DNA from: Candidatus Thorarchaeota archaeon
GTDB taxonomy: Archaea; Asgardarchaeota; Thorarchaeia; Thorarchaeales; Thorarchaeaceae
Reading direction: 5' to 3'
Assembly (NCBI GenBank): GCA_963726195.1
Contig: CAVSBO010000003.1
Coordinates: 672,001-736,000, forward strand
Length of the DNA stretch: 64,000 bases
Position numbers and translations under genes: made by a program
The notes under the pieces: generated by a model
What the model saw: the letters and a program-made list of their open reading frames with translations, nothing else
Told to the model about the DNA's origin: nothing
The model's database searches: none
Shown: one piece after another, positions 40,695-64,000 of the stretch
Layout: each line of letters starts with the position of its first letter
How positions within the stretch are numbered: position 1 is the stretch's first letter

Positions 40695-40783
40695 CCTCGT
40701 CAATGCCCTTCGGGCTGGTTGAAGAGAGAACATCGCAGTCAAACATTTATCCTAAAGGTTGCGAGGATATCTCAGTGCAATGC

Positions 40784-41893
40784 ATGCCGCAAGCAGTCTT
40801 TGTTGTCCACCTGGACGACTATTACGGTATTGTCGTCGTCAAGAAGTATCCTCCCTCCTTGTCACTGTACGAAAAGACTCTGAGTTCGATATTCTATGAG
40901 CACGAGAAAGAAGAGAAGGAGAACCTCAGATACAATGAGGTTGACAACCTCCGTGTGATCTCATTCGTTGACAAGTCACATCCCCAGTGGATGGCGTGTT
41001 TCGTTTTGAGCGACGAAGAAAACTTCGAAGGACTAAAGGCCGAGATACCGGGTATGGGACGGCTGATGATCGAGCTCGCCGTTGACAACCCAAAGATCGT
41101 TCGCCTCGAGGAGATACTAAAGAATCATAGCATCTTGGAGGAACCAAACGAGGAGCAGAAATATGCCGAGATGTTCCAAACACCATCATCATCTATGATG
41201 CTCGAGAAGATTGAAAGAGAAGGGGTCGAGAGAGCAGCAAAGCTATCGATCTGGCTCAAGACCCAAGTGCAGAGCGATTCTCTGGACCTGCGTGAATCCA
41301 TCCTGCCCCTTATGGACTCAGGAATCGTGAACGTAGAAGTTGTGGGGAAGGGAATCGAAGTTGTGTTTCTTGTTAAGGACGTGTTTGTGTACAGGGCTCC
41401 GCCCGTCAAAGCCATCATGGCCACGAGGGAATCCATGCCCGAGCTTGCCGCGAAGTATGAAGAACGCGTGGCCAAGTTCTTTGCGCCGCCTGCTCCGAAC
41501 AAAGGCTACAACCCCAGCATACCCAGTGATGACCCCAATTCGCCGCTGGTTGAAGACAGAGAGAAGATTGCCGACATCCTTTCAAAGAAGATAGGGTACA
41601 AGGTCCTGACCGCCCTTCGCGACAAACCCCTTTCAGTCAGACAGATATGTGAGAAGACTCTACTCCAAGAGGAAGTTGTTCAGAACGCATTGTACGGCCT
41701 AGAATCAGATGACGTTGCGACACAAATCGGAGAAGGAATCTGGGCATTGGTGACCAATCCAATCATGGAATCATTTATCCCTGAGTTTGTTCTGCAGCTC
41801 ATAGCAAATAAGCTCTCCAACGATCAGATTAGCCCAGAGATAGCCAGAAGACATCTTGAGATACTTGCCAAGAAGTGGAGTGTCGAGCAATGA
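40784..41893 (+). CDS. uDENN/longin-like N-terminal domain plus winged-helix protein
   Basis: AVFVVHLDDYYGIVVVKKYP resembles the uDENN-longin first hairpin; C-terminal wHTH-like KVLTALRDKPLSVRQICEKT..VQNALYGL. Confidence 0.65.
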   Translation: MPQAVFVVHLDDYYGIVVVKKYPPSLSLYEKTLSSIFYEHEKEEKENLRYNEVDNLRVISFVDKSHPQWMACFVLSDEENFEGLKAEIPGMGRLMIELAVDNPKIVRLEEILKNHSILEEPNEEQKYAEMFQTPSSSMMLEKIEREGVERAAKLSIWLKTQVQSDSLDLRESILPLMDSGIVNVEVVGKGIEVVFLVKDVFVYRAPPVKAIMATRESMPELAAKYEERVAKFFAPPAPNKGYNPSIPSDDPNSPLVEDREKIADILSKKIGYKVLTALRDKPLSVRQICEKTLLQEEVVQNALYGLESDDVATQIGEGIWALVTNPIMESFIPEFVLQLIANKLSNDQISPEIARRHLEILAKKWSVEQ

Positions 41894-42747
41894 TTAGAAG
41901 CCTCTACATACTCGGACAACAGAGCAATGTCATATACTCGAAAGAATACGTCAGCAGTGAATCGAGACAGGACATGGTTGAGTTCTTGGTGAATCTGGGT
42001 CATTTTGTCTCAACAGTCAATCTTGAAGGAAAGACAGAGTACATGAGTTTCTCAGCAACAAGGATATTCTACGCTGCTCGGCGCGAGTTCGTATTCATAT
42101 TCGTTGCTGACAAGTCTGATGATTCAACTCAGATAGAGGAGAAGATGAACCAATTAATGGAAACGTTCATGAAGGACTTTCCCGCCATGGCGCAAGCCAG
42201 CCTTCCCCTAGATGGCTTTGACTCGAAGGTCGACGAGATCGCAGTGACAACTGTGAAGGTAGCAATACTCGGATACTCGGGTGTTGGCAAGACCACGGCC
42301 CTGCATTTGCTGAGGGGAGAAACGCTTCCTCTGGTTCACATTCCGACGATGGCTTATGACATAAAGAAGCTTCCAGATGAGGTCCAAAGTGCGAACATAG
42401 TGCTCTGGGACCTCGCCGGTCAGTCTGGGTACGACAAGCTTTGGAGCAAGTATCTCGTGAAAGCCCAGATTGTTATCATCGTAACCGACAGCAGCCTCGA
42501 GAATGTGCTGCGAAGCAAGAAGCTGGTCTCATTAGTCAAACAGGAGGTTCCAGAGGCAAGGGTTATTGGCATTGCGAACAAGCAGGACCTCCCCACAGCT
42601 CTAACACCTGAAAGGGTTAGTCAGATTCTTGGAATTCCTACGTATGAGCTTGTTGCGATAGACATTTCCTACAGAGACCGCTTAATCCAGATTATCCGTA
42701 GGGCCATCCTCGAAGAAAGGGCCGAAGCTAATCCAGCACCCGCGTAG
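41890..42747 (+). CDS. Longin-domain-fused small GTPase (Ras superfamily, Arf-like)
   Basis: G1 GYSGVGKTT, G2 PT, G3 WDLAGQ, G4 NKQD; N-terminal MIRSLYIL..VIYSKEY longin-like; ATGA overlap with upstream gene. Confidence 0.9.
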   Translation: MIRSLYILGQQSNVIYSKEYVSSESRQDMVEFLVNLGHFVSTVNLEGKTEYMSFSATRIFYAARREFVFIFVADKSDDSTQIEEKMNQLMETFMKDFPAMAQASLPLDGFDSKVDEIAVTTVKVAILGYSGVGKTTALHLLRGETLPLVHIPTMAYDIKKLPDEVQSANIVLWDLAGQSGYDKLWSKYLVKAQIVIIVTDSSLENVLRSKKLVSLVKQEVPEARVIGIANKQDLPTALTPERVSQILGIPTYELVAIDISYRDRLIQIIRRAILEERAEANPAPA

Positions 42748-50044: not shown

Positions 50045-51523
50045 TCAGGGATTGTAGGCAAAGGGATGTCGAGCCGAGTCTCTTCGAGCAATGACTTCCT
50101 CAATTGGCTGCCGACCTTCCAATGCGCGCCTTATGGCAAATCGAGTGGCGCGGAAATTGTTCATGTGCACGCGTCTCGGGTTGTTTGCATTCGGGTGGAC
50201 GAACACCTTGACAGCGATTGCTAGGTCAGGCACAAGCTCTTCCGGGAGCATCCTATCGGTGATCGTCCTTGTCACAGCATCAGCGACGGCCTTCTGTGCA
50301 TATTCGAATACAAGCTTGCTATGGTGCTCGTCCGTTATTGTCACAGTGGGTGCAAAGACGGTGGTGGGGCGTATGTCTTTGATGATGCTCGATGAGTGGA
50401 AACCATCGACCTTAGTATCCGCATTGGTCACTGCAGTTTGCATAGGCCCATCCTTGAGTCCCAGCACTAAATCGACGTGAGCAACTTCCAGTCCTTCCCC
50501 GCACAGGGCCTCTCCATGAAGCAACGTCAGATCATCGATGACATCCTTGCTCAGCCCAACGGCCTTGGGATACGAGTCCGCCACAAGCGACCGATTACGC
50601 GCCTTGTAAGTGACCGGGCCTCGAGGGATGACTTGGATGTCCTCCAGCTGCGTTCTCAGTTCGTCAATGTCGTCAAAGCCCAGTATGTCTCCCTCCATTA
50701 GAGGCATTCGGGCCGAGCCAACTGGAACTCCTATCATGTTGAGAGCCGCTTTGACGGCGAGAGGGCCACCCTTGTTCACCACAATCCGGGCGGTTCGTTG
50801 GAGGCTCCGTTGAATCAGCCGAGCTTCTTTCAAATCTCCTTGGGCCAGAGCAGTCATGATTCTCATGTACCTGTCGGGAAAAATGTTTGCAGTTCCCAAG
50901 ATAACGCCGTCACAACCTGCAGCAATGCTGGACAGCACAACTTCATCATGTCCATTCACGACTTGGAAGTCCTCGGGCCTGCGAGCAAGTATCTGTGACA
51001 GGTTGACTAGATTCCCGCTGGCATCGCTAAGTCCAACCACGCCTTTGACTTCGCGAAGACCCTCTACGAGGAACCAATCAATGTTCACGCCAGTTAGCTG
51101 CGGGCAATTATACAGGAATATCGGGAGACTACCAGCGCTTGCGACCTTCTCATAGTGCTCATAGATTTCCTTCGTGGACGGTTTCATGAAATATGGAGAG
51201 ACGACTAACGCCGCTGAAGCTCCGAACTCCGCGGCCTTAAGATAAAGCTTCACCACATCAGCAGTGTATGCTGCACAAGCGCCAGCAAGTACGGGCACCC
51301 GTCCCTTGGCAGCGTCACACGCAATTCGAATCGCTTCTACTTTCTCTTCGAATGTCATGCTAGTGAATTCGCCAAGTGACGCACATGGGACTATCCCGCT
51401 GGCTCCTGCCTTGATGACATAGTCAATGAGATTGCGATATTGGGCTTCATTCACGCCTTCTTCATCGAACGGCGTCACTAATCCCGCGTACACGCCCTTG
51501 AATCGCCAAGAACCATCTGTCAT
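50045..51523 (-). CDS. DapA-family (pseudo)aldolase fused to formaldehyde-activating enzyme (Fae); aldolase Lys lost, Fae His retained
   Basis: CASLGE instead of GTTGE, VVGLSDASG instead of GIKD; C-terminal GEALCGEGLEVAHVDLVLG..AQKAVADAV..VFVHP..HPF. Confidence 0.88.
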   Translation of the reverse strand: MTDGSWRFKGVYAGLVTPFDEEGVNEAQYRNLIDYVIKAGASGIVPCASLGEFTSMTFEEKVEAIRIACDAAKGRVPVLAGACAAYTADVVKLYLKAAEFGASAALVVSPYFMKPSTKEIYEHYEKVASAGSLPIFLYNCPQLTGVNIDWFLVEGLREVKGVVGLSDASGNLVNLSQILARRPEDFQVVNGHDEVVLSSIAAGCDGVILGTANIFPDRYMRIMTALAQGDLKEARLIQRSLQRTARIVVNKGGPLAVKAALNMIGVPVGSARMPLMEGDILGFDDIDELRTQLEDIQVIPRGPVTYKARNRSLVADSYPKAVGLSKDVIDDLTLLHGEALCGEGLEVAHVDLVLGLKDGPMQTAVTNADTKVDGFHSSSIIKDIRPTTVFAPTVTITDEHHSKLVFEYAQKAVADAVTRTITDRMLPEELVPDLAIAVKVFVHPNANNPRRVHMNNFRATRFAIRRALEGRQPIEEVIARRDSARHPFAYNP

Positions 51524-51529
51524 CTTCTT

Positions 51530-52933
51530 TCACCTCCATATCTGACCGAGCGCTGCAGAGACAGCTCCCTCGGTGGCGGCAGTGATTGCCCTTCGTTCGA
51601 GACTGTCCAAGTCCACATCAATGACCATCACCATGACGTGGCTTTGGAGCACATCAGAAGGTATCTTTCCGGCAGCCAAGTGACCAGCTACGGCCTTGGC
51701 AGCACCAGATTGGACCGGACCATAGAAAACAGACGCCTGACGCATTGATCCGATTTTCCGTCCCGGCAGCATTAAACTGGACGGCTTGACAGCTAGGTTG
51801 GGCTCAAGAATCACTGACAAAGCCTCCCTGCCGATTCTTGGGCTAGTCAACAAGCGGACAAATGCAGATCCCAATGGTCCGGCTTTGGGTCCGCACACGA
51901 TGCTAACAGTGCAAGCTTGGTTTGACCCATGTCCAAGCTTCAGACCTCGTTGCTGCTCGGAGCTCATACCAGCGTCCGACAGAACACTATTGATATCGAC
52001 CTCCTTTGCGGGGGAGACATGCTTTGAGCTCTCGATCAGACCGAGCTTCTCCAGCTCGACTCTGATCTCCTCCTTGAGTTCCGGAGTCAGCGTTCCACCC
52101 GTGTTAAGTGGCATCCGAGTTTTCCCCGCGTCAATCCCCATCATCTTGAGTGCGGCTTTCACCGGAGGAGCTCCCCCGTATCTCGTGACTATGCGGGTAA
52201 GAGTCTGTACTGAGAGCTGAATCTTGAGGGCCCCATCCAAGTCACCTTTTCGGACTTTCTTCATTAGGTCCATCCAGAGATGGGGAATAATGTTCGCCGA
52301 CGCCATGATGGCTGCATTTACGCCTGCTGTCACGGCAGAGAAGAACACCTCATCGTTGCCATCTATCACAGCAATTCGGCCCTTGAGCTTCTGCAGTAGT
52401 TCCAGCATGTAGGTCATGTTACCGCTGCTGTCCTTGATACCGACGACGTTGTCAATGTCTGCTAGATCCTCTACCACGTTCGGAGGTACAACGCCTATGC
52501 CACCCATCTGTGGAATGTTGTAGAGTATTATTGGCAAGTCGCTCTTTCTTGCTACAGTGGCGTAATGCTCGTATAGGCCCTTGTCATTCGGTTTGAGATA
52601 GAACGGAGAGACAACCAAGGCAGCATCACAGCCGATATCGGCGGCGTATTTCGATAGTTCAGTCGCCGCCTTGGTGCTAGTCTGACCCGTGCCTGCGATT
52701 ATTGGAACACGGCCGTTGACGAACTTCATCGTGATATCCAGCAGCTTCTTTCGTTCGTCCATGTTCATGTAGACAAATTCACCAGTCGTTCCGGCAGGCA
52801 CAACTCCGGTGGCGCCCTTGCTTATCGTGTAATCGATGATTTCACGATAGCTTTGTTGGATAAGGTCGCCGTCCTTATTGAACGGTGTAACGAGCGCGGG
52901 GAACACACCTTTAGGCACGAACTTCTTGGGCAT
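51530..52933 (-). CDS. DapA-family class I aldolase fused to a degenerate Fae-like domain
   Basis: GTTGE, ILYNIP, VVGIKDSSG intact; C-terminal GPKAGPLGSAF..ILEPNLAVKP..FYGPVQSGAAKAV is Fae-like but lacks EVAH. Confidence 0.88.
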   Translation of the reverse strand: MPKKFVPKGVFPALVTPFNKDGDLIQQSYREIIDYTISKGATGVVPAGTTGEFVYMNMDERKKLLDITMKFVNGRVPIIAGTGQTSTKAATELSKYAADIGCDAALVVSPFYLKPNDKGLYEHYATVARKSDLPIILYNIPQMGGIGVVPPNVVEDLADIDNVVGIKDSSGNMTYMLELLQKLKGRIAVIDGNDEVFFSAVTAGVNAAIMASANIIPHLWMDLMKKVRKGDLDGALKIQLSVQTLTRIVTRYGGAPPVKAALKMMGIDAGKTRMPLNTGGTLTPELKEEIRVELEKLGLIESSKHVSPAKEVDINSVLSDAGMSSEQQRGLKLGHGSNQACTVSIVCGPKAGPLGSAFVRLLTSPRIGREALSVILEPNLAVKPSSLMLPGRKIGSMRQASVFYGPVQSGAAKAVAGHLAAGKIPSDVLQSHVMVMVIDVDLDSLERRAITAATEGAVSAALGQIWR

Positions 52934-52967
52934 CGGATTCACTGGGCAGCAAGCCGGTCCGCAGGTG

Positions 52968-52982
52968 CTATATAAGTTTCTA
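52968..52982 (-). promoter_or_regulatory. TATA box/BRE of the aldolase-Fae operon
   Basis: Minus strand AGAAACTTATATAG about 35-45 nt upstream of ATG 52933. Confidence 0.55.
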
Positions 52983-53065
52983 AAGAGCATGTCCCGGCAT
53001 ATGGAGAAGAAAGAGGTAATTTCTGACCTCACAAACGAATCGGCATGAGACTTGAAATGCAAGAT

Positions 53066-53105
53066 GAGAAAGAGAGGGTGTGCCGATCCCGCTTGGAATC
53101 GGCAC
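53066..53105 (-). terminator. Hairpin plus pyrimidine tract
   Basis: Minus strand GTGCCGATTCC-AAGC-GGGATCGGCAC followed by CCCTCTCTTTCTC. Confidence 0.6.
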
Positions 53106-53325
53106 CAGGGGTCTAGGTTAGTTTCTGTTACTTCAAGGTCACGTTCCAGTGGTGGAGGTTGGTGCCGTTCAGGCCCAAGGTCCGCCTGGAGGAACTATTG
53201 GTAGTCCGCCTGCTTTTGCGTTCATTCGGTTATTCACCGAAAATGCTTTCAGCCACCAACCTCAATCCGGCCGATTGACAGTCTTCTACTGTTTTCGGCT
53301 CCGAGAGAAGCAGAGACTGTCATAC
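53070..53325 (-). ncRNA. Candidate ~250-nt structured ncRNA (or structured sORF transcript)
   Basis: TATA-like ATATAA (53347-53352), 5' hairpin (53276-53322), 10-bp helix 53155-53164/53254-53263 enclosing 5-6 small stems, 3' terminator. Confidence 0.55.
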
Positions 53326-53427
53326 GCCACCGGAAAACCCAACGAGATTATATGACCTCGAGCACACTCATTACCGGAGAGGTGGCCTTACTTTTCTTCG
53401 AAAGAGAACTCAATCTCATGATACTGG

Positions 53428-57201: not shown

Positions 57202-59118
57202 CTAGTTGCGTGAAAGACTGGCTCGAGTCCATTCCAAGGACAATCTCCGTAATGTGTCGTCCGTAGGAAGTCCGTTTTCTAGGTTCCATCCGCGCAATCT
57301 ATAGTAGTCGTTCAACATAGGTTCCAAGTTCACGCGCTGCCCCTTTCCCGGACCCTCAGGCATTGCCTCGTCTGTGAATCTACTTGGTAGCCGGTCATCC
57401 TTGCGGCCGATGCCTTCTCGTGCATTGAAGAGACGCTTCAATGTGACCTGACGTTCCGCGATTCTCTGTAGCTCACCCGTCGATCCGAGAGACTCAACAC
57501 CAGTTGCGACCGGTAGGACTTGTGCAAAGTCCTCGAGCCAGAATATCGGAGGCCATGATACACTGTACCAGCAGACTATCATTGAATCTCGTATGCAATA
57601 CACATTCTCGGTCTCTACGACGGCTGCAGCTTTATACTTCTCTGTGTAGGGGTCGACTATCTCAGGAAGCTTGTCACGACCCCATCTCTTGGCGGCCACT
57701 TCTTGGTAACCCAACTGGTCGACGGTCACAAGGCTCCGGAGGTGATCAGCCCCGCGTGCCCCAGTGGCATGAGAGAGACCAATACTTCTGTGAGTACGCC
57801 CATCTTGGCCCGAAACCTCCAATCCCTTCACCTGAATGGCATACCTTTCGCTCCCTCTGCCAATTCTACGGGCAGCCGCTCTGCTTCCTCCTGCCAAAAG
57901 CTCACCGAAGCCCTCCTTGTTGGCAATCATCTCTAGCAGACGCAGAGCCTGTTCACTGTTGCCCCATTCCAGCTTCATCCCATCTGTTATGCTCTCATCG
58001 ATAGCACCATTCTCGAAGGCTTCGATTGCAAACGCAATTGTCGCTCCCGTCGATATCATGTCGAGCCCTAGCTGATTGCAGAGCAGGTTGGCCTTCAAAG
58101 CGGTTGGAAAATCTGCGATGCCTAACAGACTGCCGAACGACATGAGGCCCTCATATTCGGGTCCTTCTCCGTATGTCCCTGCGTAGGGGCCATCACGAAC
58201 GTAGTTCACCTTCTTACAGCCCAGGCTGCATCCGAAACAAGCTCTGTCCGAGACTGTATACCTTGGTCGTATGTACTCGCCGCTCAGCTTCTCCCAGCCC
58301 TGGAACACGCCAGTACGATGGTTGTACGAGGGCAACTCCCCGATGGTCTGCTTTACTGAAGTCAGAATCCACGTTCCCCACTTGTGCATCTCCTGAGCCT
58401 GAGGATTCTGCCGAACTCGACGGTGGGCATCTTGTGCTAGCTTGACAAATGCATCATGATTGCTGACCTCGACTGACTGATGACCCCTAACAGCAATGGC
58501 TTTCACATTCTTTGAGCCTAGGACCGCGCCCATACCAGTCCTTCCTGCCGCCCGCGCGTTGTTGACAATGACCGATGCAAACCGCACAAGGCGTTCGCCC
58601 GCAGGCCCAATGGCCGCGACTTGGATGTCCGGATCCGCATGCTTCCTTCTGATTGCCGCCGTAACTTCGTTCGTTCTCAAGCCCCAGAACTCGGTGGCTC
58701 CCACCAACTGCAAATCCGAATCCTCAACGAGTATGTAAACTGGTTCCTCCGACTTTCCTTCAACAACGAGAACATCGTAACCAGCATACTTGAGTTCAGG
58801 TCCCAAGAACCCGCCGACGTGGCTCTCACCCCAGATTCCAGTAAGTGGTGACTTTGACACGAACACTGTCCGACCGCTCATTGGCCATAATGTGCCAGTC
58901 ACCGGGCCCGTGGCAATTATGAGCTTATTCGCCTCGCCAAGAGGATTTGTTCGCGGACCCACCTCCTCGAAGAGTATTCTTGCAGCGAAACCGTCGCCGC
59001 CTATGTAGTCACGGACCCAATCTGTTGATAGGGGTTCCGCACGAAAACTGCCCTTGGTCAGGTTCACTCTCAGGGTCTTCCCAGCATAGCCTCCGAGGCG
59101 CAACCTACTCCTCTCCAC
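57202..59118 (-). CDS. aor: Tungsten-dependent aldehyde:ferredoxin oxidoreductase
   Basis: KSPLTG, AIGPAGE, GRTGMGAVLGSKNVKA, CFGCSLGC, GPEYE, GLDMISTG, RGADH, YYRLRGW. Confidence 0.95.
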   Translation of the reverse strand: MERSRLRLGGYAGKTLRVNLTKGSFRAEPLSTDWVRDYIGGDGFAARILFEEVGPRTNPLGEANKLIIATGPVTGTLWPMSGRTVFVSKSPLTGIWGESHVGGFLGPELKYAGYDVLVVEGKSEEPVYILVEDSDLQLVGATEFWGLRTNEVTAAIRRKHADPDIQVAAIGPAGERLVRFASVIVNNARAAGRTGMGAVLGSKNVKAIAVRGHQSVEVSNHDAFVKLAQDAHRRVRQNPQAQEMHKWGTWILTSVKQTIGELPSYNHRTGVFQGWEKLSGEYIRPRYTVSDRACFGCSLGCKKVNYVRDGPYAGTYGEGPEYEGLMSFGSLLGIADFPTALKANLLCNQLGLDMISTGATIAFAIEAFENGAIDESITDGMKLEWGNSEQALRLLEMIANKEGFGELLAGGSRAAARRIGRGSERYAIQVKGLEVSGQDGRTHRSIGLSHATGARGADHLRSLVTVDQLGYQEVAAKRWGRDKLPEIVDPYTEKYKAAAVVETENVYCIRDSMIVCWYSVSWPPIFWLEDFAQVLPVATGVESLGSTGELQRIAERQVTLKRLFNAREGIGRKDDRLPSRFTDEAMPEGPGKGQRVNLEPMLNDYYRLRGWNLENGLPTDDTLRRLSLEWTRASLSRN

Positions 59119-59620
59119 CCGATTGTTTCGCTATGGCGGTTCTCTCTATTTCCTTGAGATAGTTCGCTATCTTACCATGCCGGCTTCGTACGGCCGATTG
59201 CGCAATCGAGCCATACTGTATGGCTCCAGTCGGACAAGCCTTGGCGCACTCAGGATCGCCGCCGCAATGGTCGCACTTTATTACTCGCATCCTTGAGATG
59301 TCGAGTTTAATCACGCCATTGACACAGACCCCGGCACACGACTTACATAGAATGCATTTGTCCTCGTCTAGATAGGTCATCTTCGATATGGGGTCACGGC
59401 GCATTGCATAGACTGGACAGACATCAACGCAAGGGGCCTCCTCACATGGACCACACACGTTGGGAATGTCCATTCCAAGGTCATCGTAACGGACTATCTT
59501 CAGGCGTGCGAGAGCCGGGTTGAACAGACCTTCCTTTTTCGAGCTACAAGCTCACTCGCAGATTCTACAGCCCGTGCACTTTGTGTAGTCGACGGTCAGT
59601 TGCGCAGGCAGATTCAACAC
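59105..59620 (-). CDS. 4x[4Fe-4S] ferredoxin-like subunit (DmsB/AorA type) with in-frame TGA at 59552-59554
   Basis: Frame extends upstream to ..KCTGCRICE*ACS..; then CGPCEEAPCVDVCP, CILCKSCAGVC, CDHC..CAKACP. Confidence 0.88.
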
Positions 59621-59681
59621 CTCTTCACCATCCGACGCTCGTGCTTAGAAGCATCTCGGCAAGCGTGTCTTGGGTAGTGAA

Positions 59682-60746
59682 TCACAGACTGACGACCCAA
59701 CCATATTTGTCCTTTCCCTCGCCACATTGAAGGGCAGTGAGTTCGTCATACAGCTTCCGGGTCAACTCACCGGTCTTGCCACCAGATACAACATACGACT
59801 TGCCCTGATACACAAGCTCCCCAATAGGAGCAATAATCGCCGCAGTGCCAGCGCCGAACACCTCTTTGACTTTGCCTGACTTGGTTCCTTCGATAATCTC
59901 ATCAATAGAAATGCGGCGCTCGTTTACAGTGAGTTTCCAGTCCCTCGCTATTCGAACTACTGAATCTCGCGTAATGCCGGGCAGTATTGTGCCGTCAAGA
60001 GGTTGGGTCGCCAGCTCCTTGTCGAACTTGACAAACACGTTCATGGTGCTTGTCTCTTCGATATACTTGCGTTCAATGGCATCGAGCCACAGTACCTGAG
60101 AACAACCGGCATCCGAAGCCTCTTTGCCTCCCAAGAGACTGGCGGCGTAGTTGCCCATCGTTTTTGAGAATCCTACTCCTCCCCGCACAGCCCTCACATA
60201 CGTGTCTGAGACCATGATCTTCAGCGGGTTGAAGCCCTCCGGAAAATACGGTCCAACTGGTCCCACAATTACATAGAACAGATACTCCAGAGCTGCTCTT
60301 ACGCCGAGTTTGGGCTCAACTGCTATCATTGTCGGCCTGATGTATAGCGATGTTCCGGGCAGTTCCGGAATCCAGTCCTTTTCGGTTTTCACTAGCTCTT
60401 TCAAGCACTCGAGCACGAAGTCAACGTCAACTTCGGGCATTACCATTCTCTTGGCCGAAGCGTTCAGGCGCACGATGTTGTCCCGAGGACGAAATAGATA
60501 GACCTTCCCTGCCCTGCGATAAGCCTTGAGACCTTCGAACACGCCCTGCCCATAATGAAGAACCATTGCAGCAGGGTCGAGCGAAAGTGGTTGGTAGGGG
60601 CCAATCTGAGGGTCTGACCATTGCCCGTTTCTATAACGCATTGTGAACATGTGATCTGTGAAGGTTGACCCGAAAGGAAGCTTGAGAGGATCCTTGGGCT
60701 TTGGCTTCCGCCTTGCGGGCGGTACGAGGTCTGTCTTCAGATTCAT
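59682..60746 (-). CDS. ilvE: Branched-chain amino-acid aminotransferase
   Basis: FTDHM, LHYGQGVFEGLKAY, LYIRP, KTMGNYA, ILPGITRDS, GTAA. Confidence 0.95.
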   Translation of the reverse strand: MNLKTDLVPPARRKPKPKDPLKLPFGSTFTDHMFTMRYRNGQWSDPQIGPYQPLSLDPAAMVLHYGQGVFEGLKAYRRAGKVYLFRPRDNIVRLNASAKRMVMPEVDVDFVLECLKELVKTEKDWIPELPGTSLYIRPTMIAVEPKLGVRAALEYLFYVIVGPVGPYFPEGFNPLKIMVSDTYVRAVRGGVGFSKTMGNYAASLLGGKEASDAGCSQVLWLDAIERKYIEETSTMNVFVKFDKELATQPLDGTILPGITRDSVVRIARDWKLTVNERRISIDEIIEGTKSGKVKEVFGAGTAAIIAPIGELVYQGKSYVVSGGKTGELTRKLYDELTALQCGEGKDKYGWVVSL

Positions 60747-60924
60747 GTCTTCACGACGGCTCAAGTCCTGCTGGCGCCTCACGTTATAGTTTTCGGTGAA
60801 ATGCCATCAAGGTTCCCTCAAGTGGATACCAGTCTGTATTACTTTCCTCGGAAAAAGCTTAAGTCGGTCCAATTGGTGAAAGCTTGATAGGACAATCGTG
60901 TTGATAGACAAGGACGTGTAGCTG

Positions 60925-61536: not shown

Positions 61537-61848
61537 CATGGGCGGCTCCCTCTACGCATCATAGTTGACGTTCCGTTGTGGTTTTTTGTCTAGGAAACTG
61601 GATTCGTGTAACGGACAGCCCATCTCATTCTGGGACGCGCGGCAAACGCAATGAGCAGAGACTGCGTTCCGACTATTGCACAATTCGCACTTGCCGCGAT
61701 TTGCGATTATGAGTGCGACTTCAAGAATGCTGAGATTGCCCACCAAGTCCCACGCTCCGGTTCTGACACAAACAGCGAGGAGCACGTAGGAAAGCGTTTA
61801 ATACCAAATCGAATGGATTTCACCACAAAAACCGCAGGACGGGTAACT

Positions 61849-63111
61849 ATGTCAAATCCTGAATCCAATCCTTGGGAGAACGTTCTAACGCAGCTACACC
61901 TTGCAGCTGAAGCGATTAAGCTAGACGAGAATATACTAAAGATTCTCGAGAAGCCGGATAAGATTCTGATAACCTATTTCCCAGTTATCATGGACGACGG
62001 CCATCTTGAAATCTTTGAAGGTTACAGAGTACAGCACTCACATCATCGAGGACCATGCAAAGGCGGAATCCGATACGCGCCTGACCTCAGCCTCGATGAA
62101 GTGAAAGCCCTAGCCGCATTGATGACTTGGAAGACTGCTGTGGTCAACATTCCATTCGGCGGGGCCAAGGGCGGTGTCGTATGCGACCCGTGGAAGCTCA
62201 GTTCCGCTGAGCTGAAGAAAATGACGCGAAGATTCACTTACAGTCTGATTGGCATGATTGGGCCAGAATCAGACATACCTGCTCCCGACGTGAACACGAA
62301 CCCGGAGGTTATGTCGTGGATGCTGGACACATATTCCATGTGGACTGGTCACACCGAGCTCAGCGTTGTCACAGGCAAACCAGTCGAAATCGGTGGCAGC
62401 GTTGGCAGAACCGAAGCTACCGGAAGAGGGCTGTTCTATGTGATGGAGGAAGCCTTGAGACAGAAAGGTCGCAGTACTAGAGGGCTGCAAGTTGCTGTGC
62501 AAGGCTTCGGCAATGTGGGCAGCTACTTCTGTAAATTCGCTCATCAAGGCGGCTTCAAGGTCGTAGCTGTAGCAGATGCCTTCGGCGGCGTCTACGATCA
62601 ACATGGGCTTGATATCCCCAAGCTGATCGACTACGCATCCAAGCAACCGAAGAAGTCGGTGGATGGTTTTCCGGGCGCAGACACCATAACCAACAAAGAC
62701 CTCTTCGAACTGGATGTGCCCATTATCGCGCCATGTGCTATGGGCGATGCGATTACAAAGGACAATGCAGACTCCATTCAGGCTTCCATGATAGTTGAAG
62801 GGGCCAACGGTCCCACTACTCCTGAAGCCGACGCTATTCTGGCAGAAAAAGGAGCGACAGTAGTACCGGACGTACTTGCAAACGCAGGCGGTGTTACTGT
62901 GAGTGACTTCGAATGGGTTCAGGGACTGCAACACTTCTTCTGGAATGAGCAGCAGGTTAGCCAAGCGCTTCGAGACATCCTAGTCAAATCGTTTGACGAG
63001 GTCAACAAGACTGCATCGGAGTACAACATCAGAAGTCTTCGGACTGCAGCGCTCGCATTGGCAGTGAAAAGAGTCGCTAGGGCAATTGAGCTCAGAGGCA
63101 TATTCCCGTAG
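61849..63111 (+). CDS. gdhA: Glutamate dehydrogenase (Glu/Leu/Phe/Val family)
   Basis: GPCKGGIRY, MTWK, GGAKGG, DIPAPDV, QGFGNVG, EGANGP, NAGGVTVS. Confidence 0.95.
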   Translation: MSNPESNPWENVLTQLHLAAEAIKLDENILKILEKPDKILITYFPVIMDDGHLEIFEGYRVQHSHHRGPCKGGIRYAPDLSLDEVKALAALMTWKTAVVNIPFGGAKGGVVCDPWKLSSAELKKMTRRFTYSLIGMIGPESDIPAPDVNTNPEVMSWMLDTYSMWTGHTELSVVTGKPVEIGGSVGRTEATGRGLFYVMEEALRQKGRSTRGLQVAVQGFGNVGSYFCKFAHQGGFKVVAVADAFGGVYDQHGLDIPKLIDYASKQPKKSVDGFPGADTITNKDLFELDVPIIAPCAMGDAITKDNADSIQASMIVEGANGPTTPEADAILAEKGATVVPDVLANAGGVTVSDFEWVQGLQHFFWNEQQVSQALRDILVKSFDEVNKTASEYNIRSLRTAALALAVKRVARAIELRGIFP

Positions 63112-63384: not shown

Positions 63385-64000
63385 CTATGGGAACAGACCA
63401 CGCTGCTCCATCACTGATGCTATTCTGCCTACGGCCAGCATGAATGCTGCCGTTCTCATGTGTACGTTTTCCTTCTTGGCAATGTCATAGACTTCGTGGA
63501 ATGCCTTCACCATGCGTGCCTCAAGTTTGGTATTCACTTCCTGTTCAGTCCAGTATTCGCGTCTCAGGTTCTGAAGCCATTCATAGTAAGAGACTGTCAC
63601 TCCTCCGGCATTGGCCAAGATGTCGGGAACAAGGAAGGTCCCACTCTTGTAGAGGACTTCATCAGCCTCTGGTGTAGTCGGGCCATTTGCACCCTCGATG
63701 ATTATCTTAGCGTTCACTGAGTCTACGTTGCTAGATGTAATCTCGTTCTCCAGAGCACAGGGGAACAGAAAATCGACATCGAGTTCGACCACCTTGTCAA
63801 GCGGTATCTCTTTCGATCCGGGGAAACCCTTTACCGTGCCGGTCCTTGCCTTGAAGTCACCGACTTTGCGAGCATCCAAACCATCAGGATTGTAGATTGC
63901 GCCTTGGGAGTCGCTACATGCAACGACTCTCATGCGGAGATCTTGGGCAAGCCATGCCGAGTTGTACCCAACGTTTCCGTATCCAGTCACTGCTACAGTG
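63385..64000 (-). CDS. gdhA: Second glutamate dehydrogenase, C-terminal part (truncated by window edge)
   Basis: GYGNVG, EGANGPTT, PDILANAGGVTVSYYEW, RGLFP. Confidence 0.93.
   Translation of the reverse strand, partial: TVAVTGYGNVGYNSAWLAQDLRMRVVACSDSQGAIYNPDGLDARKVGDFKARTGTVKGFPGSKEIPLDKVVELDVDFLFPCALENEITSSNVDSVNAKIIIEGANGPTTPEADEVLYKSGTFLVPDILANAGGVTVSYYEWLQNLRREYWTEQEVNTKLEARMVKAFHEVYDIAKKENVHMRTAAFMLAVGRIASVMEQRGLFP

Follow-up and report, generated by a model that had tools for sequence, protein, structure and literature searches.

The proteins closest in design to the two genes described here are the Fae-Hps proteins of methanogens, in which an aldol enzyme that releases or fixes formaldehyde is fused to formaldehyde-activating enzyme (Fae). 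Fae itself is a pentamer that has its tetrahydromethanopterin (H4MPT) site between adjacent subunits, with His22 as the catalytic histidine; the PDB entries for Fae list five chains each, and in the homopentamer of Methylobacterium extorquens (PDB 1y5y/1y60) every chain carries both inter-subunit faces. In a 64,000-nucleotide stretch of a Candidatus Thorarchaeota genome (GCA_963726195.1, contig CAVSBO010000003.1, positions 672,001 to 736,000; hereafter the window, to which plain coordinates refer), two genes lie 6 nt apart on the minus strand, gene 1 (51530-52933, 467 residues) and gene 2 (50045-51523, 492 residues), and each encodes an N-terminal barrel of the class I DapA/NAL family followed by a Fae-like domain. 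Open reading frames, Pfam profiles and a residue check bear out this arrangement and every motif quoted in an earlier note that a model had made from the sequence: gene 1 matches the DHDPS-family barrel (PF00701) with E 5e-79 and Fae (PF08714) with E 3e-24, and gene 2 the same families with E 8e-69 and 6e-34, all above cut-off. The two proteins are 34% identical, and their Fae domains are the sole two in the genome. Named homologues come mostly from Thorarchaeota, and NCBI and JGI label them 4-hydroxy-tetrahydrodipicolinate synthase.

The pair resembles Fae-Hps in design but differs in the fused domain, which is PF00701 and not Hps, and in the division of Fae over two genes; the two proteins score 60.6 and 106 against PRK13307 (Fae-Hps), both below its cut-off of 274. 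Several Asgard genomes that contain a single aldolase-Fae fusion also carry a separate Fae protein of ~400 residues, which argues that the fusion serves a different formaldehyde source from that of Fae-Hps. The pair is a real, widespread and uncharacterised enzyme. Its design is that of Fae-Hps and its net chemistry probably that of PanB, but it belongs to neither family, and it is not DapA. No paper on a Fae-DapA fusion was found in the literature searched, which excludes most subscription journals.

What sets the pair apart is the state of its Fae site. The family alignment holds 306 sequences in all, among them 154 of the gene 1 type (type A) and 144 of the gene 2 type (type B). The Fae-like domain of gene 1 (51533-51946) is without the EVAH histidine, which is absent in 154/154 type A sequences, and without FVHP and the C-terminal arm, and it falls short of the Fae family model TIGR03126 (77.6 against a cut-off of 118.05). 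The earlier note had taken this domain to be dead, and the loss of the histidine and of HPF is indeed there, but one inter-subunit face is retained almost invariantly: many columns of the central segment (G-H/R-E-A-L..ILEPN..P, RQAS.FYGPVQ) are conserved in 154/154 sequences, and the retained face, with E-A-L..ILEPN..KP, spans residues 350-385 (51779-51886). Gene 2 passes TIGR03126 (129.9), and its Fae-like domain (50048-50524) keeps GEAL..EVAH.D, FVHP and RHPF (residues 485-488). His349, within EVAH (codon 50477-50479), is the equivalent of the catalytic histidine of Fae and is present in 143/144 orthologues, and FVHP and RHPF are likewise nearly invariant. This domain is eroded too, which the earlier note had missed, and precisely in the central segment (EPN..KP / GP.Q) that gene 1 retains. 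Compared with M. extorquens Fae, then, the EVAH histidine, the F-H motif and the C-terminal HPF are kept in gene 2 and the central segment in gene 1, so that the pair has one face per chain, and neither protein carries both.

This division holds across the family. When the columns that define the two types were left out and the faces were taken from the modelled interface, type A sequences matched the intact consensus at 0.55 on face A and 0.25 on face B, and type B sequences at 0.31 and 0.66; the asymmetry ran in the expected direction in 27/27 type A and 18/18 type B sequences, which share kinship and are not independent events. Modelled as an A+B dimer, the two Fae domains reached an ipSAE of 0.84 against 0.00 for the best control, at a mark that 58/80 solved pairs and 2/110 mismatched pairs reached in a benchmark; runs agreed in at least 83% of contacts, with a partner pLDDT (predicted local distance difference test) of at least 82. 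The predicted contact sets residues 350-385 of gene 1 against His349 and the C-terminal arm of gene 2. We are confident that A and B jointly rebuild one split Fae site as an A:B heteromer. As the sequences show and the model supports, each Fae copy kept one of the two inter-subunit faces after the fusion was duplicated, so that only A:B rebuilds a site. The comparison of sequences thus gives good support to an obligate heteromer, as the earlier note had proposed, for a reason other than the one first given, which was a division into one aldolase and one Fae. The large cage-like assembly that the same note envisaged finds no support and is unlikely, because Fae domains that have a single good face each should assemble no further than the A:B pair. 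Among genomes of the class Anaerolineae, 48/52 that are Fae-positive contain exactly two Fae copies, including those in which the copies are unlinked. The pair would be a clear example of duplicates between which a common active site has been split, and the present clade shows a further step, the loss of one aldolase site.

That further step concerns the barrels. The barrel of gene 1 (52031-52933) is an intact class I aldolase barrel, with GTTGE at residues 48-52 (Thr49/Thr50), Tyr138 and Lys167 within GIKD; the codon of this Schiff-base lysine lies at 52433-52435, and the residue is lysine in 154/154 type A sequences. The barrel of gene 2 (50624-51523) has ASLGE, Tyr138 and, in GLSD, Ser166 (AGC, 51026-51028) in place of the lysine. 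On this contrast the earlier note had built its model of reciprocal loss. As a principle of the family it fails, and on the very point that the note had named as refuting it: type B proteins keep the Schiff-base lysine in 137/144 cases and the Thr-Thr motif in 134-138, the lysine is present in 32/34 when genome loci alone are counted, and the same-genus genomes G001 and G003 both retain it. Serine occurs here and in just five other sequences, which are 84-98% identical. An assembly error is ruled out as its cause, as the serine occurs in those five other sequences, one of them from an independent peat run, and so is pseudogenisation, with dN of 0.084 against dS of ~2.3 (saturated), equal to the barrel of gene 1. 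The gene 2 barrel is catalytically dead in this clade only; since it is still under purifying selection, it is likely that, where it lacks the lysine, it is a conserved scaffold.

As a rule for the family, the arrangement in which chain 1 is the sole aldolase and chain 2 the sole Fae, built into a cage, therefore deserves very little credence. Its single-Lys/single-His division is literally true of this genome and the five close sequences, but across the family it meets the lysine of the type B orthologues and a gene 1 Fae face that is conserved and lies within the predicted interface; a pentameric ring, moreover, could not be expected to close with one face per chain. Read from the alignments, the Lys/His reciprocity is a local second step that came after an earlier splitting of the Fae site. 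Two observations on the barrels may be added. In the Lys-less clade the active site of gene 1 has changed as well (52350-52510; His to Asn in GHDE, and Cys to Met plus one Gly inserted after YNIPQ), and the substrate may have shifted there. In the divergent type A and type B proteins P0248 and P0252 (locus L367) the lysine is gone from both barrels while the Fae halves remain, which suggests that certain lineages retain the Fae function alone.

The A and B genes descend from a single aldolase-Fae fusion that is still intact in other archaea: single fusions with both sets of faces occur in other Asgard genomes, Bathyarchaeia, Lokiarchaeia and Methanofastidiosia (51 sequences). A gene 2 orthologue is present in 35/36 related Thorarchaeia genomes, and beyond Thorarchaeia another Asgard genome (G043), Anaerolineales bacteria and metagenome contigs show the A-then-B split; Fae occurs in 52/201 genomes of the class Anaerolineae, about a quarter. 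In a quick tree of the barrels, with all 45 split-type sequences, 22/51 intact ones and 6 outgroups, the A, B and intact groups received SH-aLRT support of 88-91%, below the starred level, so that one duplication and several can both be accommodated.

A second protein travels with the fusion. This partner, an uncharacterised protein of ~310 residues that is ~75% identical across archaea and bacteria, adjoins the fusion in 5/6 other Asgard genomes and lies near a DapA-type barrel gene in 57/87 further loci, with Fae detected in 47. A family of ~430 residues, weakly similar to it (pairwise E ~1e-3), replaces it in Lokiarchaeia and in part of the Bathyarchaeia; 35/36 related Thorarchaeia have it too, unlinked. 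Among 24 Asgard genomes from outside the Thorarchaeaceae, all six with the fusion have one or other form of the partner, 15 have neither, and three have a partner where no full fusion was found. The predicted fold of the partner is a TIM barrel whose class is unclear. A fold search returned generic TIM barrels only (CutC with Z 15.4, rmsd 2.9 over 198 aligned residues; the U32 protein Mk0906 with Z 14.7; class II aldolases), and as these generic matches tied they are not diagnostic; an Atlas search with the 430-residue form gave no match above 0.75. The pair offers a handle on a very conserved, uncharacterised TIM-barrel family. In 20 widened Anaerolineae loci the partner is followed 16 times by the A+B pair, three times by a PanB-family gene and once by neither. 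Because the pair and a PanB-family gene alternate in one slot, the pair can be likened to PanB in net chemistry, and the alternation suggests that it does PanB's net job in two steps.

PanB (PF02548) and the pair are alike in this operon slot and in the proposed joining of a 2-oxo acid and methylene-pterin. They differ in that the sequences are unrelated, with no PF02548 match in either protein, and PanB is a metal-dependent class II enzyme that uses tetrahydrofolate (THF) at one site, whereas the pair combines a Schiff-base aldolase with a separate Fae site. PanB carries a hydroxymethyl group over from methylene-THF to a 2-oxo acid, and it can act as a cofactor-independent formaldehyde aldolase (PMC7610986). 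It is probable that the pair couples an aldol reaction to C1 transfer, and on balance we think that A and B form a two-subunit enzyme that passes a C1 unit, as enzyme-held formaldehyde, from a 2-oxo acid to a pterin carrier or the other way. The barrel would cleave or form a 4-hydroxy-2-oxo acid, with retro-aldol cleavage giving a 2-oxo acid and formaldehyde, and the Fae site would condense the formaldehyde with the pterin or release it from the pterin, for a net reaction like that of a PanB-type hydroxymethyltransferase; in most relatives both barrels keep the Schiff-base lysine, and in the present clade only that of A does. If this is correct, it would be a second way of building a 2-oxo-acid hydroxymethyltransferase. 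The earlier note's coupling of an aldol reaction to formaldehyde capture is in this respect plausible from the fusion and its operon context, but its premise of H4MPT is shaky here, as discussed below.

As to the 2-oxo acid, NAL-family enzymes, YagE and NanA among them, normally use pyruvate as the donor. A barrel of this family working with pyruvate and formaldehyde would yield 4-hydroxy-2-oxobutanoate (HOB, deaminated homoserine), and we tentatively name HOB, interconverted with pyruvate and methylene-pterin, as the substrate, with somewhat less than even confidence. That the pair is a dedicated natural enzyme for this interconversion, channelling formaldehyde to a Fae site made of two half-domains, is a more doubtful proposition; of the two directions, amino-acid catabolism is slightly favoured. 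YagE and NanA cleave 2-oxo-4-hydroxybutyrate to pyruvate and formaldehyde as a side activity (PMC12709889, PMC13279387), and the interconversion of pyruvate plus formaldehyde with HOB is a promiscuous activity of YagE, YjhH and NanA and a step of the engineered, synthetic homoserine cycle, with HOB called non-native (PMC12709889, PMC8879981). The pair, which belongs to the same aldolase family as these enzymes, would be a natural counterpart to what is a side activity or an engineered one there. If the pair is indeed an aldolase dedicated to formaldehyde and pyruvate, with a site for a C1 carrier, it would be relevant to synthetic methylotrophy.

Neighbouring genes provide hints toward homoserine as the substrate link. 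One A+B pair is followed by an aminotransferase gene and a Liv-type amino-acid ABC transporter, and in 14 Thorarchaeia loci the partner has a threonine-synthase-like gene beside it. The Asgard genome G040 (L299:7166-13759) has a co-oriented set comprising an NAD-dependent epimerase-like gene, the partner-type barrel of 427 residues, an aminotransferase, homoserine dehydrogenase and an aldehyde:ferredoxin oxidoreductase (AOR); neither an aldolase-Fae fusion nor Mch was found in that genome. Homoserine dehydrogenase occurs in 2/37 Thorarchaeia and 2/6 other genomes with the fusion, and in 9/15 with neither fusion nor partner, counts in which kin are not independent. With the aminotransferase and the partner barrel, the pair might form an undescribed link between a C1 carrier and homoserine in Thorarchaeia, in Bathyarchaeia and in roughly one in four of the Anaerolineae sampled.

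Several results weigh against this picture of a pterin-linked pair acting on a homoserine derivative. The passing model, of the A+B pairing, may mirror likeness to the solved Fae pentamer; the partner gene lies apart from the pair here and is broken by a frameshift in the assembly; and the homoserine links depend on few loci. ThrB and MetX were above cut-off in 0/5 genomes, which leaves a biosynthetic homoserine route without a visible outlet. For the carrier, a search of this genome, which is 88.9% complete, did not find Mtd, Ftr or canonical RFAP synthase; Mtd and Ftr were found in 0/4 genomes of the genus, and canonical RFAP synthase in just 1/37 genomes of the family. The H4MPT pathway that the earlier note presumed in the host is thus represented, among the genes detected, by Mch (C18:35976-36911), which makes the carrier uncertain; scavenged methanopterin, a folate and a pterin from a divergent pathway are all candidates. 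As an observation in its own right, the retention of Mch in 36/37 Thorarchaeia (this genome and 35/36 relatives), with RFAP synthase in 1/37 and Mtd and Ftr missing in the genus, amounts to an unexplained pterin metabolism. The frameshifted partner, of the 430-residue form, lies at C18:104611-105880 in two frames with a break near 105516, which is either a real lesion or an assembly error, and it is whole in G001 and G002.

The gaps in the methanopterin pathway raise the question of whether the Fae site of Thorarchaeia has dropped H4MPT altogether, using THF or another pterin, or just binding a ligand, with the aldolase acting largely on its own. The pair is kept throughout a family in which RFAP synthase occurs in 1/37 and Mtd in 21/36 genomes, and FolD was found in this genome as well as in the two Anaerolineales that were tested. 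We nevertheless consider such a shift improbable, given that Mch is kept in 36/37 genomes, that His349, FVHP and RHPF have hardly varied, that G043 combines the split pair with RFAP synthase, and that family f3 has Mch and Mtd yet no RFAP-synthase match, for which scavenging or a divergent enzyme is possible. A different 2-oxo acid has a slightly better claim: with the same architecture and chemistry but ketoisovalerate as substrate, the pair would be a methanopterin-type ketopantoate hydroxymethyltransferase and the partner would belong to pantoate metabolism. The operon slot shared with PanB-family genes is in keeping with this, as are G043, G048 and G058, in which the fusion is present and PanB was not found, and G048 has genes that by eye resemble pantoate kinase, phosphopantothenate synthetase and PanE. 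We still find it unlikely, because an ordinary PanB gene accompanies the pair in 33/37 Thorarchaeia genomes, this one included (C4:95723), because the barrel-linked PanB genes are just 45-52% identical to ordinary Thorarchaeia PanB and may be paralogues, and because pyruvate is the usual donor in the NAL family. Simple replacement of PanB in Thorarchaeia was set aside as not needed, PanB being present.

Less probable again is that the pair is an aldolase for sugar acids (2-keto-3-deoxy acids) in which Fae merely mops up formaldehyde from a C4 substrate or a side product. Relatives in the family do include KDG aldolase and KdgD, and a gene of the galactarate/altronate-dehydratase family adjoins the fusion in one Bathyarchaeia-like group of loci, but the pair scores far under the cut-offs of the KDG aldolase and KdgD families, and no sugar catabolic cluster surrounds it in the Thorarchaeia or Anaerolineae loci. 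That the database label is right, and the pair an ordinary lysine-pathway DapA, we regard as scarcely credible. The proteins share the fold and the Thr/Tyr/Lys motifs of DapA, carry its name in NCBI and JGI records and pass the TIGR00674 cut-off of 206.15 (229.6 and 222), but they have an added Fae domain, and Arg138, which binds aspartate semialdehyde, is missing in 306/306 aligned sequences, with M, C, V or L there. The earlier note had already seen that both proteins lost the arginine after the catalytic tyrosine, and Met143 of gene 1 does align with the R of YNVPSR in solved DHDPS; its rejection of a lysine-pathway role gains further weight from the genomes, as DapB was found in 0/37 of the family, a semialdehyde-dehydrogenase (Asd-type) domain in 7/37 with none found in this genome, and aspartate kinase had no match above cut-off in this genome (88.9% complete). 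Under the DapA label, reconstructions of abundant sediment lineages would credit them with a lysine step that is probably absent and miss a C1 reaction.

Within the locus, the ATG of gene 1 at 52933 agrees with the lengths of its orthologues. The junction of the two genes (51524-51537, minus strand) takes in the closing codons of gene 1, in which a GGAGG lies, then the stop and the spacer of 6 nt, and is the likely ribosome-binding site of gene 2; comparable junctions occur in most of 33 orthologous pairs, with a reading frame that varies, and the conserved GGAGG points to translational coupling of gene 2. Read-through of the stop codon into one chain of ~1000 residues is ruled out, as the genes are in frame in just 7/33 pairs and the stop codons differ. 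A scan for promoters and terminators gave no signal beyond chance. In 27-30 related loci, two big genes (~865 and ~815 residues, without a Pfam family) lie between a metallo-beta-lactamase gene and the pair; they are absent here at 52934-53427, were found nowhere in this genome by tblastn and are also absent at three other loci, so that they are not required for the pair.

Upstream on the same strand, 4-8 kb from the pair, lie genes for AOR, a ferredoxin-like protein and a branched-chain aminotransferase (57202-60782); AOR genes recur near the partner barrel in other genomes, but at just 29-38% identity. A third DapA-family gene, without Fae, is located at C3:325436-326284 and is nearest to 5-dehydro-4-deoxyglucarate dehydratase, below cut-off. 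Read by eye, two glutamate-dehydrogenase-like open reading frames face each other at 61651-63111 (plus strand) and 63385-63990 (minus strand), the second cut by the end of the window, and at 40703-42747 a gene for 396 residues is followed by a longin-like and small-GTPase gene (290 residues), a typical Asgard arrangement of eukaryotic-signature genes.

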